IMG/VR virus record: IMGVR_UViG_3300043747_000021
Span: 1 to 52,282 of that record
Strand: one strand, 5' to 3'
DNA from: a virus
Lineage: Duplodnaviria > Caudoviricetes
DNA length: 52,282 bases
Shown here: positions 28,540-32,614 of the stretch, one piece after another
How positions within the stretch are numbered: the stretch's first letter is position 1
Layout: each line of letters starts with the position of its first letter
Translations under genes and position numbers: made by a program
The notes under the pieces: model-generated
What the model was told of the DNA's origin: nothing
Database searches by the model: none
The model's input: the letters and a program-made list of their open reading frames with translations, nothing else

Positions 28540-28716
28540 CCCGGTTTGCGCCGGGCCGTCTAGTTTACCTCCCGGTTGACGCCGGGCCGGGTGAAAATTA
28601 TTCCGGAAACTATTCCGGTAGCTGATTCCCGGTTCACGCCGGGCCGATGACTATCGACTGTCCCGGTTCGGGCCGGGCCGCGTATTGGTGGACCTGTCCC
28701 GGTTGGTGCCGGGCCG
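28540..28716 (-). repeat. Palindromic-motif array A (5 copies)
   Basis: CCCGGTT-N4-CCGGGCCG on + at 28540, 28571, 28628, 28662, 28698. Confidence 0.92.
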
Positions 28717-28867
28717 CGTTGACATCGGACTACGTGTATGCCATGAATATTCCGGGCAATCAAGCCCACGGCATAGCGGGCATCGGATGTCAATTCCGCG
28801 CTTATAAACCGGAATCTTGCTGCTGGTCATCGTTATGCCTTTGCCCCGGTTTGTACCGGAGAAACGG

Positions 28868-29212
28868 ATGAGCATGAACGGGTATATGCTGAAGACAATC
28901 GGCGTCCTCAAGGAGATGGCCGCCAAAGGCGGCGTGTCGATCGAGAAGGCGATCAACATGGTCGAGGTCCTCGAAAGTCATCGCCACGAGGAGCAGGACG
29001 CGCGGCGCTCCCTGCCTGAGGAGAAAGAGTTGGTGCGCGCCGAGTTGGCCAAGCTCGACGCTACCATGCTCCGCAAGTTCACGTCGCGCGAGATCGCGGC
29101 CGAACTCATTAAGAACGGTGTTACCATCAGACCCAACGTTCAAGGGGTTCTGTCGGTCATCTCCCGCACCCGCAAGCTGTTGACCAGCCAATCGACAGCG
29201 GCGGCGGCGTGA
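28868..29212 (+). CDS. Hypothetical protein
   Basis: GGAG RBS, helical 114-aa product. Confidence 0.7.
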   Translation: MSMNGYMLKTIGVLKEMAAKGGVSIEKAINMVEVLESHRHEEQDARRSLPEEKELVRAELAKLDATMLRKFTSREIAAELIKNGVTIRPNVQGVLSVISRTRKLLTSQSTAAAA

Positions 29213-29265
29213 TCGTAATCGCTTGGGGGGCCGGCAACCCCGGCCCCCTAACTGTGGAGTTGCCG

Positions 29266-30183
29266 ATGCTCAATCCCGATGTGATCCCATCCCCTCATAA
29301 AGCCCGCGTCCTGTTCGACAAGGCGCAGAACTTTGTGTCTGCGTTCCTGGTCGAGATCACCGCCATTCGCAAGCAGATCGGCGACGACGACAAGTTTGCA
29401 AGCTGGTGCTTCAACGACCTCCAGATTGGTGTGTCCGCCATCACGCGGCTTGCCGACGCGCTGGACAAGGTTGACGCTGAGATCGCCAAGCGGGCGCTCG
29501 TCGGCGCACGCGCTGCCGAGGAGGCTCAGCTCGCCGCCCAACGCCGCGAACGTGAGGCCGCAGCCGCAGCCGACAGAAAACGCCGCGACGACGAGAAAGC
29601 AGCCGCCGCAGCCGAAAAAGCCCGTAAGGAGCAGGACGCCAAAAAACAAGAGCGCCGCGACAAAGGCAAAAAACACCGCGCCACCGACAAGGGCAAAGAG
29701 GCCAAACGCAAGAACAATGCCGGTTGGAAAGCTAAGCTGGCCGGCGAAAAAAAAGCCGCCCTGCTCGATCTTGCTGCGTCAATCAATAACGGCAATATCG
29801 TTCCATTCCCAATCTCGGCAACATCAGCGACACAGGAGGATTTGGTGAAGGAGATCAAGCAGAGTGAGCAACTCATGCACGCGGGACGGGACCAGTGGAT
29901 TATCGGCGCTGTGCGATTCGCCGCCGCCCTGTGCGAAGCCCGCCGTCGTTACCCCGCTCACTTGAAATTTTCAAACTGGCTCGACGAGAACAATATCAAG
30001 CTTGACTCACATGATCGCGCCGCGCTGCTCAATCTTGGACTCAATCCGCCCGCCATGGCTGTGCTACTCGCTGACACTGACCGGACCTCGTTCAAACACA
30101 TATGGCGCGACACTGAGCACAAGCTCACTGAGCTGAATGCGGCAAAACAAAGGCGTTATGGCCACGTGGACAAAACGCCTTAA
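29266..30183 (+). CDS. Coiled-coil protein with two DUF3102-like helical domains (candidate DNA-binding)
   Basis: 'IRKQIGDDDKFASWC' and 'ALCEARRRYPAHLKFSNWLDENNI' joined by an Ala/Lys/Arg coil; GTGGAG RBS. Confidence 0.65.
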   Translation: MLNPDVIPSPHKARVLFDKAQNFVSAFLVEITAIRKQIGDDDKFASWCFNDLQIGVSAITRLADALDKVDAEIAKRALVGARAAEEAQLAAQRREREAAAAADRKRRDDEKAAAAAEKARKEQDAKKQERRDKGKKHRATDKGKEAKRKNNAGWKAKLAGEKKAALLDLAASINNGNIVPFPISATSATQEDLVKEIKQSEQLMHAGRDQWIIGAVRFAAALCEARRRYPAHLKFSNWLDENNIKLDSHDRAALLNLGLNPPAMAVLLADTDRTSFKHIWRDTEHKLTELNAAKQRRYGHVDKTP

Positions 30184-30190
30184 TTGCCGG

Positions 30191-30444
30191 GCCGGCGCTA
30201 ACCGGCACTGCCACATGAACAGGTTAAACCCGTTCGCGCCGGGCCGGTTGCGCGGATTAATGACGTGGACGGCCCGGCATGAACCGGGAGTTCCAGTTGC
30301 AGGCAGGTGATCCCGGTTCGCGCCGGGCCGTTCAAGTCATGGTGGGGTTTTTCCCGGTTTACGCCGGGCCGCTGTGCATACGCCTCTTCCCGGTTTACGC
30401 CGGGCCGGTCACGTCACTAGGTTCCTCCCGGTTCGCGCCGGGTC
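30191..30444. repeat. Palindromic-motif array B (4 minus-oriented and 2 plus-oriented copies)
   Basis: Minus: 30312, 30353, 30389, 30427. Plus: 30191 (GCCGG/CCGGC stem) and 30273. Confidence 0.9.
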
Positions 30445-30478
30445 GACATAAGGGTAGGCTTCCAGGTACACCGGGACG

Positions 30479-30844
30479 TCAGGACCGCCGGGACATTTGC
30501 GACATTTGGCGTCCGGAGGTCCTGCCGCCAGAATGAGCTTGTCCCTTTGCGTCAGGGGCTTCCAGTTTTCGCCGAACATCCTCCTGCCGACAATTTCCTT
30601 GGCTTCCTCGTAGCTGATGGTCACCCGGCTCTTTGATGATTTGCGCCATTTCTTCATCATTGATTCCCCGCCGATAAGTGTAGCTGCGGGCGATGCGCAG
30701 CCTGTCTTGCGTGAACGTCACCAGAGCGCCGTTGTCCATGCCGACCGTCCAGTAGTAATCGTGCGCGCACGCCTCCACAAACAGCGCATAGCCGCGTCCG
30801 AGCGGTGTGTCGACACGGATGGGCTCCCGGAACTCGTGAATCAT
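30479..30844 (-). CDS. Hypothetical protein
   Basis: 'PIRVDTPLGRGYALF....DYYWTVGMD.G' resembles a recurring phage family. Confidence 0.7.
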   Translation of the reverse strand: MIHEFREPIRVDTPLGRGYALFVEACAHDYYWTVGMDNGALVTFTQDRLRIARSYTYRRGINDEEMAQIIKEPGDHQLRGSQGNCRQEDVRRKLEAPDAKGQAHSGGRTSGRQMSQMSRRS

Positions 30845-30870
30845 TCGGTCCGATTGCCTCAGCTCCCGGT

Positions 30871-31122
30871 TCAGGCCGGGCCCTCATTTGCGTTTGCTCC
30901 CGGTTCACCCCGGGCTGTTTGCCGCGGTGGAAACCGCGACGGCCACATGCGTGACGCGCGCTCGCGTGACAGCTCGCCCGCGATCAGGCCGGCAAGAAAC
31001 GAGCGCTGCTCGCCGGACAGGACACCGACCGGCAACCTGTCCAAAATGTCCCAGGCGATGTCGTGGCACCACGACGTGCCGGGACCGTAAAGGGCCGGAT
31101 AGGTGTGCTTGGGTTCGGTCAT
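30871..31122 (-). CDS. Hypothetical protein
   Basis: MTEPKHTYPALYGPGTSWCHDIAWDILDRLP...; its 3' end runs into motif copies. Confidence 0.55.
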   Translation of the reverse strand: MTEPKHTYPALYGPGTSWCHDIAWDILDRLPVGVLSGEQRSFLAGLIAGELSRERASRMWPSRFPPRQTARGEPGANANEGPA

Positions 31123-31185: not shown

Positions 31186-31491
31186 CGCGGCGCAAACCGC
31201 GAGATGTGGTCGTAAAATGGCGCGGCGAGAACCGCGAGTGGGTAACGCGATGTGCGGCGCGGCGCAAACCGCGAGCAAGTCGCCGCAATCCAGCGCGGCG
31301 AGAACCGCGAGTGGGTAACGCGATGTGCGGCGCGGCGCAAACCGCGAGGACGTCGAAGGCGAATAGCGGCGCGGCGCAAACCGCGAGAAGCTGTGCATGA
31401 CGGACGCGGCCGTAACCGCGAGGGTTGAGCGACATGCGGCGCGGCGCAAACCGCGAGCGGCGTGGATGATCGACGCGGCGACAACCGCGAG
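31186..31491 (+). repeat. Palindromic-motif array C: 9 copies of CGCGG-N4-AA-CCGCGAG, period 34-39 bp
   Basis: Starts at 31186, 31221, 31258, 31294, 31331, 31370, 31405, 31440, 31474. Confidence 0.95.
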
Positions 31492-31503
31492 CCAGGAGCG
31501 CCC

Positions 31504-31791
31504 TTGAGCGACGCCTACGCGGACCCGAGCTTCCCGGTCCGGGAATGTGACTACTGCCACAAGCCCTACCAGGGGCCGGCGGTGTACTGCTCGATCGAAT
31601 GCGCGGAGCTTGCTGCGGGCGCGCACACGCTTGCCAAGCACGAGCCGGCGCTGCGGCACAACGGCGACGAAAACGTTGACGGCGAGGTCGAGGGCCGCGA
31701 GCTTGACGACGGCGTCGAGCCCGACGAGCCCGACGACGCCGAGGACTATGCCGAGGAAGGCGAGCCGCCCGAGAACGACCTTGAGGCGTAA
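31504..31791 (+). CDS. Small zinc-finger protein with acidic tail
   Basis: AGGAG RBS plus TTG; CDYC...YCSIEC; D/E-rich C-terminus. Confidence 0.6.
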   Translation: MSDAYADPSFPVRECDYCHKPYQGPAVYCSIECAELAAGAHTLAKHEPALRHNGDENVDGEVEGRELDDGVEPDEPDDAEDYAEEGEPPENDLEA

Positions 31792-31801
31792 CGTTGCGGT
31801 T

Positions 31802-31922
31802 GGCCCGGCGTAAACCGGGATGAACCTAGTGACGTGAGCGGCCCGGCGTAAACCGGGAATTCATGCGCCGGCCCGGCACGAACCGGGACACAATGACCGA
31901 ATTGGCCCGGCGCAAACCGGGA
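31802..31922 (+). repeat. Palindromic-motif array D (4 copies)
   Basis: GGCCCGG-N4-AACCGGGA with cores at 31804, 31842, 31872, 31906. Confidence 0.93.
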
Positions 31923-31944
31923 ATGCTGGTGATAAGAGAGGCCC

Positions 31945-32154
31945 ATGTCCGACGCCAGCATTGCCGCAATCGCACGCGCGCTCGCCGAGGCCATGGCCAA
32001 GTCGGGCTACGAGCGCACCCCCGAGGCCAAGCACGAAGCACGTGTGCGCATGCTCCAGTTGATCGAAGCCGTCCGCGCCGAGGAGATCAGCAATGAAACG
32101 AACCAAGCTCCCCAAGAAGCTCAAGGCCACCACCACCAGTCACCGCGGCCCTAG
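31945..32154 (+). CDS. Hypothetical protein
   Basis: GAGG RBS, helical product. Confidence 0.6.
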   Translation: MSDASIAAIARALAEAMAKSGYERTPEAKHEARVRMLQLIEAVRAEEISNETNQAPQEAQGHHHQSPRP

Positions 32155-32236
32155 AACCGGCAAGGTGCCGATGTCCAAAACCCATAGCGCAAACTACGGT
32201 CGCGGCTCGACGAGCAGTTCCAGGTCGAGTAAGTGA
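32093..32236 (+). CDS. 47-aa highly basic peptide (not in ORF track)
   Basis: GAGGAG RBS; MKRTKLPKKLKATTTSHRGPRTGK... Confidence 0.45.
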   Translation: MKRTKLPKKLKATTTSHRGPRTGKVPMSKTHSANYGRGSTSSSRSSK

Positions 32237-32353
32237 AAATGCCCGGAAAACCCCGCAAATACCGGCCCGTTAAACTGCGCGTAAAACATCAAACCCCCGA
32301 TCCCGTGCGTGATACAAGAACCCGCAAACTCAGCGGTAACGTCACCGCAGCGG

Positions 32354-32614
32354 CGCGGCGTAAACCGCGAGGATGAGCCCGTTGTTGCCCGGACATAACC
32401 GGGAGCAAAGAGCATGCAGGCCCGGCAATAACCGGGAATGGTGGGCCGATTACAGGCCCGGCAATAACCGGGAACCGAACCGGACACGCGTGAATGGCCC
32501 GGCTATAACCGGGATGTGGCAGTGAACTGGCCCGGCGCAAACCGGGAGAATGCGCGTGATTGGCCCGGCGAAAACCGGGAGGGTTATCGTCTGCCGGCCC
32601 GGCGGAAACCGGGA
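32354..32614 (+). repeat. Palindromic-motif array E (8 copies, period 33-41 bp)
   Basis: Cores at 32354, 32388, 32421, 32457, 32498, 32531, 32564, 32598. Confidence 0.95.

Follow-up and report, generated by a model that had tools for sequence, protein, structure and literature searches.

The 52,282-nt stretch of DNA analysed here (the window) derives from soil metagenomes and represents an uncultured podovirus of roughly 52 kb. It raises the question of what purpose is served by a dense set of small dyad repeats that occupy almost all of the spaces separating its small early genes. A first-pass annotation had counted about 36 copies in 28540-32614 and had proposed guide or decoy RNAs, a protein-sponging RNA or a lattice of DNA-binding sites. 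Its interpretation is partly supported, and among its alternatives a protein-binding hairpin RNA has become the leading reading.

Census and anatomy of the motif

Searching both strands of the window for SSCGG-N4-AA-CCGSS gave 38 exact matches, compared with 0.72 expected (100 shuffles, sd 0.84, largest 3). Thirty-six of these lie within 28540-32613 (4.1 kb), conforming with the earlier count, and the remaining two at 20448 and 21209. The full motif was found to be cGG-C(C/G)CGG-CNNNAA-CCG(G/C)G-A, a longer conserved block than first described. A covariance-model census returned the same 38 copies at 22.7-36.3 bits with the next site at 15.3 bits, revealing the set to be sharply bounded. One decayed copy (30223-30249, minus strand; 11.2 bits) sits between the plus-strand copies 30191 and 30273.

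The 5-6-5 geometry (16 bp) is fixed in all copies. While the inner three stem pairs are set by the search pattern itself, the outer two are free to vary, and these were complementary in 38/38 copies, against a chance expectation of 1 in 4. The arms take three sequences, all self-complementary: CCCGG/CCGGG in 25 copies (24 in the region), CGCGG/CCGCG in 12 (11 in the region) and GCCGG/CCGGC in one. No hybrid stem turned up in the region when one mismatch was permitted, and the three compensatory stems of the first description stand. All 190 stem pairs are G:C, with zero G-U and zero A-U. Arms covary, and conservation outside them is asymmetric, comprising the loop AA, which is as invariant as reported (38/38), the A following the stem (38/38), loop C1 (35/38) and the 5' flanking G-2 and G-1 (34/38 each). 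Altogether, 20 nt are conserved; variation is confined to 3-4 loop nucleotides and a single spacer of 8-41 nt.

Differences between related copies mostly spare these positions. In the 61-nt inverted duplicate (90%; 30387-30447 and 31799-31859), five of six differences fall outside them, and in a 92-94% relative all five array changes among the differences listed are in loop N positions or spacers, with 114 further ones beyond those listed. Judged from these comparisons and from 38 intact copies against one decayed, the motif positions are under selection.

The paired motif as it occurs in the phage was absent from the genomes of 185,579 species and from all other viral and metagenome contigs searched. 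Among relatives, only near-identical soil variants carry it; three related records have no copy (0/3), and in the relative L163 the counterpart of the gene pair at 28868..30183 and the flanking genes are present without arrays. Because no diverged relative has arrays, independent covariation is not available. Rfam gave no relevant match, and the CRISPR, TIGR, ANTAR and partition-site comparisons each failed on a defining feature, which supports the earlier view that the motif corresponds to no described element.

Arrays, polarity and gene context

The copies form six clusters, not five, although their arrangement as spaced arrays over 4 kb is as described: 28540-28713 (5 copies), 30191-30442 (6), 30865-30938 (3), 31139-31489 (1+9), 31804-31921 (4) and 32354-32613 (8). 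Of 29 neighbour distances below 60 bp, 26 lie at 30-41 bp (mean 35.5, sd 2.7) and the others at 24, 47 and 57 bp; the earlier description gave mainly 33-38 bp. Spacers are mostly unique, as stated earlier, save for the inverted duplicate and for a direct one of 63 nt (97%) that lies within 31220-31355. Each of the two main stem types keeps largely to its own arrays. Coordinates are compiled in Table 1.

Table 1. Motif copies and neighbouring features in the window
Feature	Position	Strand	Details
Outlying full-consensus copy	20446..20464	+	End of small + ORF in lysis cluster; ORF stop codon in loop
Outlying CGCGG-type copy	21207..21225	+	Inside or beside + ORF 20796-21353
Array 1	28539..28715	-	Five CCCGG-type copies: 28540, 28571, 28628, 28662, 28698
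Conserved gene pair	28868..30183	+	114/131 aa and 305/324 aa; HTH-like on visual inspection; between array 1 and next array
Two copies	30191..30288	+	30191 (sole GCCGG-type), 30273 (CCCGG-type); directly past stop of gene 29266-30183
Four CCCGG-type copies	30311..30443	-	30312, 30353, 30389, 30427; 3' end of leftward operon
Leftward operon, three small ORFs	30409..31122	-	31122-30871, 30844-30657, 30660-30409; third-position GC 0.84, 0.79, 0.70
Cluster amid leftward genes	30864..30938	.	30865(-), 30899(-) CCCGG-type; 30923(+) CGCGG-type, antisense
Single CCCGG-type copy	31138..31156	-	Leader of leftward gene (ATG at 31122)
Promoter-like site TTGACG-16-TAGACT	31144..31175	+	Hexamers span 31144-31171; motif polarity changes here
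Operator-like dyad GTGTAG-N7-CTACAC	31157-31175		Overlaps promoter-like site 31144-31171
Nine CGCGG-type copies	31184..31491	+	Roughly 320-nt leader of rightward operon; includes a recent 73-bp duplication
Small rightward genes	31507..32236	+	31507-31791 (Cys4 zinc-finger protein with acidic tail), 31945-32154 (69 aa), possible 32093-32236 (47 aa, basic)
Four CCCGG-type copies	31802..31922	+	Between genes 31507-31791 and 31945-32154
Eight copies	32352..32614	+	CGCGG-type 32354, then seven CCCGG-type; upstream of 32653-32886 and winged-helix gene
Winged-helix protein	32946..33689	+	LexA_DNA_bind; phrog_270 'replication initiation'

Polarity switches from minus to plus copies within 31155-31185, between divergent genes, where two promoter-like sites face in opposite directions and an operator-like dyad lies on both. 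The first hexamer of the rightward site lies over part of the copy at 31139-31154 and equals the complement of that copy's loop; about 15 bp separate the second hexamer from the first CGCGG copy. Thirty-two of 38 copies are sense to the neighbouring genes (naive p = 1e-5), including both outliers; counted as clusters, the figure is 9/11 (p = 0.03). The six antisense copies, all perfectly kept, are 30923 and the five of array 1, whose minus-strand copies are antisense because both flanking genes lie on the plus strand. Copies were found at gene boundaries, either directly after stop codons, ahead of ribosome sites or in the 320-nt leader; copies 30312 and 30273 form a 30-nt inverted pair. In the spacers, purines predominate on the motif strand (249/421; GC skew +0.19, AT skew +0.18), as they do on gene sense strands.

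Six-frame searches of the window revealed no Nop, Cas6, tyrosine or serine recombinase, ParA (AAA_31) or ParB_N, in line with the reported lack of cas, Tas/Nop, integrase and parA genes; likewise, no integrase, Tas, Y1 transposase or ANTAR-domain gene was found there, and none of the genes could be recognised as encoding a primase, helicase or DNA polymerase. A TnpB-like ORF lies at 15031-16329(-), 12 kb from the arrays. The small proteins of the region could be assigned to no family. The 'initiator' label given to 32946-33689, which has an N-terminal winged-helix domain and the phrog_270 match, is weak, because relatives were found for that domain only.

RNA hairpins or sites in duplex DNA

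A hairpin that is read single-stranded, most likely as RNA, accounts for the pattern better than a symmetric DNA operator does. The asymmetric loop and flanks count against a symmetric dimer on duplex DNA, which does not predict asymmetry, and the coupled change of both arms counts against a duplex-DNA monomer, which does not predict coupling. Also counted in favour of RNA is that the usual DNA roles are already filled, by an operator-like dyad at both promoter-like sites and by a separate set of repeats within the winged-helix gene (33289-33363; 3.6 identical units of 21 bp). Our preferred reading, held tentatively and at less than even confidence, is that the arrays are putative protein-binding RNA hairpins in the leader and intergenic gaps of two early operons. 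That they are transcribed is suggested only by gene orientation and one promoter-like match.

Folding gave a mixed picture. Isolated units mostly kept all five pairs (11/12 tested, -8.5 to -12.1 kcal/mol), but whole arrays showed no folding advantage over shuffled sequence (z = +1.0, -1.35, -0.14), and most hairpins were lost in the minimum-energy fold of the CGCGG leader. This absence of excess folding counts against the RNA reading, as do the six well-kept antisense copies and the failure to identify an RNA-binding protein among the small proteins of the region.

One of the closest precedents is the lambdoid nut/boxB site of N antitermination, which occurs twice per genome and has a five-base loop. 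It shares with the phage motif a short G:C-rich 5-bp stem, an A-rich loop, the sense direction and a place in both leaders of a divergent pair of early operons. It is read in RNA, which is proposed here, and differs from the 36 copies and six-base loop of the phage; no boxA-like partner or N-like protein was recognised in the phage. Six-base-loop hairpins read via loop bases are described as RNA targets of antiterminator proteins (PMC3369931). These ANTAR targets, as presented there, are small tandem hairpins whose binding needs conserved loop bases and stem pairing; their loops conserve A1 and G4, whereas those of the phage conserve C1, A5 and A6, and they are pairs overlapping a terminator.

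The main rival, somewhat unlikely in our estimate, is that the copies are double-stranded DNA sites, i.e., arrayed operators or roadblocks by which a phage protein shuts off or insulates the two early operons. The absence of any G-U or A-U pair among 190 and the restriction to three stem sequences suggest that the duplex itself is read, and the fixed geometry agrees with this. Because stem types are array-segregated and part of the CGCGG array was recently duplicated, the compensatory change may amount to one or two events, or reflect two DNA-binding specificities. The overlap of one copy with the first promoter-like hexamer, the start of the CGCGG copies close to the second, and the perfect preservation of antisense array 1 also favour DNA sites. 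The LexA-type winged-helix protein, encoded just downstream of the eight-copy array, could be the binder, but its gene has its own, different repeats, and no paralogous DNA-binding proteins were found in the phage to explain two specificities. A homodimer leaves the strongly asymmetric centre and flanks unexplained, a conventional dyad is already in place at both promoter-like sites, and with no integrase or recombinase found a lysogeny repressor is not obviously needed. The 30-41 bp spacing, moreover, shows no helical phasing, contrary to the lattice of helical turns proposed initially.

Stoperators offer a DNA parallel: about 30 asymmetric sites without dyad, oriented with transcription, single and genome-wide. 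Here, 36/38 copies are packed into arrays and arms covary. In the account of Cluster A mycobacteriophages in PMC9283540, stoperators are, like the phage motif, polar and intergenic, and act as repressor sites halting elongation.

Remaining alternatives and proposed role

It is improbable that the arrays act as an RNA decoy, in which abundant early hairpins titrate a hairpin-binding host defence or RNase component after the manner of CRISPR-repeat or antitoxin-RNA mimics. Thirty-six copies in the first-expressed region would suit a sponge, and the period of about 35.5 nt is near the 36 nt of type III antitoxin repeats. It is also near that of processed RNA arrays such as the 36-nt tigRNAs, as these are described. 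Cas6f-binding phage repeat mimics are documented, but those documented are solitary units (PMC10651486). Only 20 nt are conserved here, with a variable loop and without the conserved handles of a full repeat; spacers range from 8 to 41 nt, and mimicry is demonstrable only with an identified host and its repeats.

We give similarly little credence to selfish or structural repeats, i.e., REP/MITE-like hairpins spreading in the phage lineage, or recombination scaffolds shuffling small genes, with no dedicated binder. Bacterial REP/BIME elements, small palindromes that are rich in G+C and lie outside genes, cluster in transcribed gaps and affect mRNA stability; the phage motif resembles them in composition and placement. 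Tandem REP-like hairpins with a similar core, yet other flanks or longer stems, occur in unrelated bacterial genomes (L098, L092/L094/L109, L096); the two duplications imply that arrays recombine and expand, and flanking genes lack arrays in relatives. Nevertheless, most of the phage copies are directly repeated, their stem is exactly 5 bp long, certain unpaired bases never vary, the gap between intact copies and background is sharp, and neither a Y1 transposase nor a host family was found for the motif.

Single-stranded DNA hairpins for replication or packaging, e.g., lagging-strand template signals for priming or loading at forks that leave an origin near 31170, are very improbable. Although 33/36 region copies lie on the strand running 5' to 3' away from about 31170, and AT-richer stretches flank the outermost arrays, the only iteron-like repeats are 2 kb off, inside the winged-helix gene, and no replication gene of the types named above was recognised. 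Position 31170 is not a genome end, because contigs of two runs read across it.

Partition sites were also considered. F sopC-type centromeres consist of tandem units that each contain a 16-bp inverted repeat, as do the phage arrays; in the centromeres a dimer binds each repeat, the spacers are identical, the units form one block, and ParA and ParB, both absent here, are needed, which speaks against the centromere-like lattice suggested initially. Overall, at least one test went against each of the CRISPR, TIGR, ANTAR, centromere and host-REP readings.

Guide-RNA arrays serving an unrecognised effector, the weakest reading, are scarcely credible: the phage location, the alternation of repeats and unique spacers every 36 nt or so and a TnpB-like gene elsewhere in the genome recall TIGR or CRISPR arrays and their mimics, which are regular and frequent in phages (PMC12045711, 10.64898/2026.09.09.750476, PMC10651486), but the unit lacks the two 8-12-nt repeats and two roughly 9-nt spacers and the box C/D layout described for them, the only variable stretches are those in the loop and the single spacer, spacers differ in length, no gene for Nop, Tas or Cas6 was found, and spacer matches in the phage are at chance (mean longest 9.1 observed, 8.5 shuffled).

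Returning to the favoured RNA reading, each hairpin, with five G:C pairs closing a six-base C-N3-A-A loop and with unpaired GG on its 5' side and A on its 3' side, would bind one copy of the same sequence-specific protein, a small phage or host protein. The copies lie sense to the genes of two divergent early operons, which start near 31150-31180; nine make up the rightward leader, and groups of 1-8 occupy the spaces between small genes to either side. RNase E scanning is known to be hindered by protein-bound sites, which protect mRNA, and poorly by bare stem-loops. Early messages of this phage would thereby carry multivalent, protein-loaded platforms that govern message fate, and the effect may be read-through, RNase protection or timing via protein titration.

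Sequence and census of the hairpin motif

The polar hairpin pattern SSCGG-N4-AA-CCGSS, for which the first-pass annotation had claimed a dense set of copies, matched exactly 38 times against 0.72 expected, with 36 matches lying inside 28540-32613. Stems were CCCGG/CCGGG in 25 copies, CGCGG/CCGCG in 12 and GCCGG/CCGGC in one. The existence of three compensatory stem versions was confirmed by outer pairs that were complementary in all 38 matches, the search pattern having left only two of the five pairs free, and by the absence of hybrid stems when one mismatch was allowed. Wobble and A-U pairs were absent from the stems.

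Alignment in motif orientation revealed the full conserved block to be cGG-C(C/G)CGG-C-N3-AA-CCG(G/C)G-A. The loop was six bases long in every copy, and both the loop AA, described as invariant from the outset, and the A after the stem were present in 38/38. The four loop bases initially taken to be variable were so only in the last three, as C1 was fixed in 35 copies; G-2 and G-1 were each found in 34. A covariance model built from the copies completed the census, with the copies scoring 22.7-36.3 bits and the best other site 15.3 bits; a single decayed copy was found at 30223-30249. We conclude that the feature is genuine, has sharp limits and is under strong selection, and that it fits no described family.

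Genome context and placement of the arrays

The window is the entire IMG/VR virus record (52,282 bp, about 62% G+C), and its DNA was present in three sequencing runs, all of soil metagenome DNA, with no RNA run among them. Positions 1-250 and 52060-52282 overlap at ~98%, the C-terminus of a tail protein being repeated, which implies that the assembly closes on itself and represents a closed or terminally redundant genome and not a 78% fragment. PHROG and Pfam scans revealed a gene block of podovirus-type structural proteins; portal identity to the nearest cultured phages was only about 27%. Six-frame profile searches of the whole record yielded neither a tyrosine or serine recombinase, integrase included, nor a family A DNA polymerase; T7-type RNA polymerase (PF00940) was likewise not found in six frames, but the control was silent. 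No Y1 TnpA was detected anywhere in the record.

Genes of the phage, including those around the arrays, and the basis of each call
Feature	Position	Strand or direction	Basis
Internal virion proteins, one of 2,889 aa	639-13945		PHROG/Pfam
TnpB-like ORF, 432 aa	15031-16329	-	OrfB_IS605 HTH domain, transposase PHROGs
Endolysin	19718-20278		PHROG/Pfam
terS-like gene	27496-28146		PHROG/Pfam
Gene pair	28868-30183	+	Third-position G+C, homologues
Three small leftward genes	31122 to 30409	leftward	Third-position G+C, homologues
Cys4 zinc finger, acidic tail	31507-31791	rightward	Third-position G+C, homologues
Gene	31945-32154	rightward	Third-position G+C, homologues
Gene	32653-32886	rightward	Third-position G+C, homologues
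Winged-helix protein	32946-33689	rightward	Third-position G+C, homologues
Tail fibre	34626-38516		PHROG/Pfam
terL	39245-40798		PHROG/Pfam
Portal	41407-43098		PHROG/Pfam
Major head protein	45268-46107		PHROG/Pfam
Tail tube proteins	48870-52266		PHROG/Pfam

The gene calls around the arrays were backed by third-position G+C and homologues. Neighbouring copies were spaced 30-41 bp apart in 26 of 29 cases (mean 35.5, sd 2.7). Spacers, originally described as mostly unique, were indeed so with two exceptions: the CGCGG array contains a direct duplicate of 63 nt (97%), and an inverted duplicate of 61 nt (90%) joins 30387-30447 with 31799-31859. Arrays started a few bases from stop codons, two of which lay inside hairpin loops, and ended just upstream of ribosome-binding sites. 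Stem types segregated by array, and nine CGCGG copies form the leader of the rightward operon.

Up to 31154, 11 of 14 copies were on the - strand, the + exceptions being those starting at 30191, 30273 and 30923, and from 31186 on all 22 copies were on the + strand. Relative to the adjoining genes, 32 of the 38 copies were sense, both outlying copies included; copy 30923 and all five in array 1 were antisense. By cluster, 9/11 were sense (p = 0.03). Copies 30273 (+) and 30312 (-) form with their flanks a 30-nt inverted pair (87%; 30260-30340), which sits exactly where the leftward operon and the rightward-running gene pair converge and is possibly a two-way terminator.

A scan of 7.3 kb (27400-34700) revealed two sigma-70-like sites. 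One, TTGACG-16-TAGACT (31144-31171, +), has its -10 overlapped by the dyad GTGTAG-N7-CTACAC (31157-31175), and a second copy of the dyad with one mismatch (27422-27440) overlaps the -10 of the other site (27449-27421), making it, from its sequence, a candidate conventional operator common to two early promoters. The product of the first gene past the nine-copy leader combines a zinc finger of the form Cys-x2-Cys...Cys-x3-Cys with an acidic tail of some 50 aa; Atlas gave only weak leads (0.83-0.84), to NinF and, at 14% share, to YacG, and the protein is a candidate nucleic-acid-binding protein or mimic. None of the small proteins of the module matched a Pfam or PHROG family, and a 262-aa ORF through the CGCGG array was rejected, having no homologue besides the window's own call.

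The label "initiator" given to the winged-helix gene was found to be weak because only its N-terminal domain has relatives. This gene contains a 21-bp unit repeated identically 3.6 times (33289-33363), encoding DPQGVVN and carrying the dyad CCACA-GGG-TGTGG in each repeat, followed (to 33418) by a 12-bp unit repeated 2.8 times and a GC palindrome. By analogy, the 21-bp repeats, which differ from the hairpin motif, could be a lambda-style origin embedded in an initiator gene, or merely a coding repeat.

Other repeats were observed elsewhere in the genome. The gene-free region directly 3' of terS (28150-28530) contains (CA)12.5 and a (TG)-rich run forming a 38-nt inverted repeat (28226-28263/28294-28331). 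An AT-richer stretch and a (CG) run also occur there, as does, near 28423-28440, a G8-T-C7 palindrome, and breaks in the source-run contigs fall at 28215/28342. The region may serve in packaging or as a genome end, and its alternating purine-pyrimidine runs could adopt Z-DNA; at the equivalent place, the related contig L163 carries a GGCNN repeat of 5-bp period (L163:1-260). Just past the gene of the 2,889-aa virion protein, a 27-bp tandem repeat (4.3 units, 97% matches; 14018-14134) contains a small C5/G4-5 hairpin in each unit. A segment at 21854-22018 repeats the last 39 aa of ORF 20796-21353 (82%), 21095-21331 resembles 21721-21996 (56%), and short repeated peptide-coding segments were also seen at about 25.9, 26.8 and 27.0-27.1 kb. 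An MT-A70 family methyltransferase with an N-terminal HTH is encoded at 18915-19760 (+; E = 9e-25); three adenines never vary in the hairpin motif.

Readings of the arrays and comparison with known systems

In the motif, the arms change together, whereas conservation in the loop and flanks is asymmetric. Coupled arms imply a symmetric dimer or a hairpin, asymmetric loop and flanks a monomer or a hairpin, so that a hairpin read single-stranded accounts for both at once, with RNA as the likeliest strand because polarity follows transcription. From these sequence patterns, we tentatively favour the arrays being an RNA platform for protein binding, a reading that falls somewhat short of even chances. 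Isolated units are predicted to fold into the hairpin (11/12 keep five pairs, -8.5 to -12.1 kcal/mol), and purines predominate in the spacers on the strand that carries the motif, as they do in the sense strands of the genes. Against an RNA reading, whole arrays showed no folding advantage over shuffled sequence, stems lack wobble and A-U pairs, stem types are array-specific, array 1 is antisense to its adjoining genes, and no RNA-binding protein was recognisable. As the evidence for and against RNA is thus mixed, sites in duplex DNA, acting as operators or roadblocks, would be a possible if rather unlikely alternative; for a duplex site, however, the coupled arms and the asymmetric loop and flanks point in opposite directions, to a dimer and a monomer, respectively.

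Stoperators, the binding sites of the immunity repressor, are polar, have no dyad, and occur singly across the whole genome. The phage motif shares their polarity with transcription but differs in that 36 of 38 copies lie in arrays within 4.1 kb, and no integrase was found. REP/BIME elements are high-copy families dispersed in host chromosomes together with a Y1 (RAYT) transposase. Their general form is like that of the phage motif, and unrelated genomes do contain tandem hairpins whose core is similar, but the phage lacks a Y1 transposase (PF01797, 0 matches in six frames). Lambdoid nut sites combine a boxB hairpin of five-base loop with boxA and the N protein, whereas the phage loops have six bases. 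Iterons are direct repeats at an origin bound by an adjacent initiator; the phage arrays run in two orientations over 4 kb, and the winged-helix gene has different repeats of its own. A partition centromere of the sopC/parC type needs ParA and ParB (or ParR) genes; with 0 six-frame matches each to ParA (AAA_31, PF13614) and ParB_N (PF02195), the centromere-like reading proposed earlier did not hold.

According to PMC3369931, an ANTAR target consists of two hairpins whose six-base loops have A as first and G as fourth base, and it is accompanied by an ANTAR protein. The phage loops are C-N3-A-A instead, and the best six-frame match to the ANTAR domain (7.7 bits, E = 0.24) was below the cut-off. 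As outlined in PMC12045711 and 10.64898/2026.09.09.750476, TIGR arrays consist of 36-nt units of two alternating 8-12-nt repeats and two roughly 9-nt spacers, or alternatively of stem-loop units in which two spacers of 8-12 nt are bordered by box C/D, and go with an adjacent Nop-domain Tas gene; CRISPR arrays have near-identical 25-36-nt repeats with spacers of similar size. A CRISPR-repeat mimic (Racr) resembles the host repeat (PMC10651486). The phage unit differs from TIGR in having one 20-nt block, 3-4 variable loop bases and one spacer of 8-41 nt, and from the longer, uniform CRISPR and Racr repeats in its short block and variable loop; its period is about 35.5. A six-frame search of the 52-kb record for Nop (PF01798) returned no match at E<=1, control genomes having responded; Cas6 (PF01881) gave 0 in a six-frame search, and no cas family was present among the ORFs scanned. 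The guide-array reading was dropped, given no dual-repeat/dual-spacer unit and no Nop or Cas6 gene. The reported lack of cas, Tas/Nop, integrase and parA genes was borne out for Cas6, Nop, integrase (recombinase searches, 0) and ParA, as was that of any matching described element: TIGR, CRISPR, ANTAR and centromere each fail a defining feature, and Rfam returned nothing above threshold.

Several further candidates were rejected. Tandem promoters with the loop complement as -35 had a -10-like partner in only 1/36 copies, and ECF-type or other promoter spacing showed no conserved position 16-17 nt downstream. Restriction-site decoys were dismissed, as CCGG outside the arrays shows no avoidance (440 sites against 441.5 expected); the 2,889-aa protein, considered as a virion RNA polymerase using hairpin promoters, lacks a PDB match, polymerase motif B and a Pfam family, and no pair of paralogues was found that could bind one stem type each.

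Two published observations bear on the possible working of an RNA platform: ANTAR proteins recognise tandem six-base-loop hairpins via loop bases (PMC3369931), and an account of RNase E scanning describes protein-bound sites, not bare stem-loops, as strong obstacles. More speculatively, and improbably in its full form, the arrays would be a new phage RNA device, with dozens of identical protein-binding hairpins set in the non-coding portions of the earliest messages. Together they would form a multivalent sponge or scaffold for a host RNA-binding defence, an RNase component or an unrecognised phage effector, with two stem versions for two states or partners.

Distribution in relatives and biological meaning

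A phage DNA search with 28000-34600 gave no match, and Rfam on 27000-35000 only a sub-threshold microRNA-like match on the CA/TG repeat. In viral contigs, the single motif was found in 88 stretches, with one match each among the 80 listed, which is chance level; the paired motif gave one unrelated match and the CGCGG pair none. In 185,579 species genomes, the paired-motif scan gave 66 stretches, every one an unrelated tandem repeat or a member of another hairpin family, and in metagenome contigs it gave two unrelated coding-type repeats. None of the genomes, viral contigs or metagenome contigs scanned, collections that may omit records very near the window by design, carried the paired motif as here.

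Protein queries with the initiator-like and terS products found no relatives. The terL query gave five loci, of which L156 (terL identity 58%), the only one checked with upstream sequence, has no arrays. L163, found via a 305-aa protein, has the homologous + gene pair (58% and 50% identity) and a plain palindromic terminator where the window has arrays. As three related records contained 0 motif copies each, the arrays appear confined to a narrow lineage comprising the window and two soil contig sets, X2, essentially identical to it, and X3, a 92-94% relative in short pieces. All five array changes among the X3 changes listed (114 further changes lie beyond these) fell in loop N or spacers. 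In P0015, a homologue encoded on a 3.2-kb contig and with 78% identity to the product of the first leftward gene, the peptide across the CGCGG copy was kept and that across copy 30899 changed from ARGEPG to AGGQPG, from which an altered 5' arm is predicted. Low-depth joints 28520->30311 and 30407->28697 are probably another relative or repeat-driven mis-joins and were left out of the analysis.

To our knowledge, where regulatory motifs recur between the early genes of phages, they do so as single sites. Here, in a lineage without a cultured relative, a 20-nt polar hairpin is kept intact 36 times, occupying ~720 nt of a 4.1-kb early module, or about 1.3 kb including spacers. If the copies are DNA sites, orientation-dependent roadblocks would here be seen in arrays for the first time. 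If a protein reads the hairpins on RNA, they would constitute a natural, highly multivalent RNA-protein system, which could reveal a new control of early messages or the disarming of a host factor.
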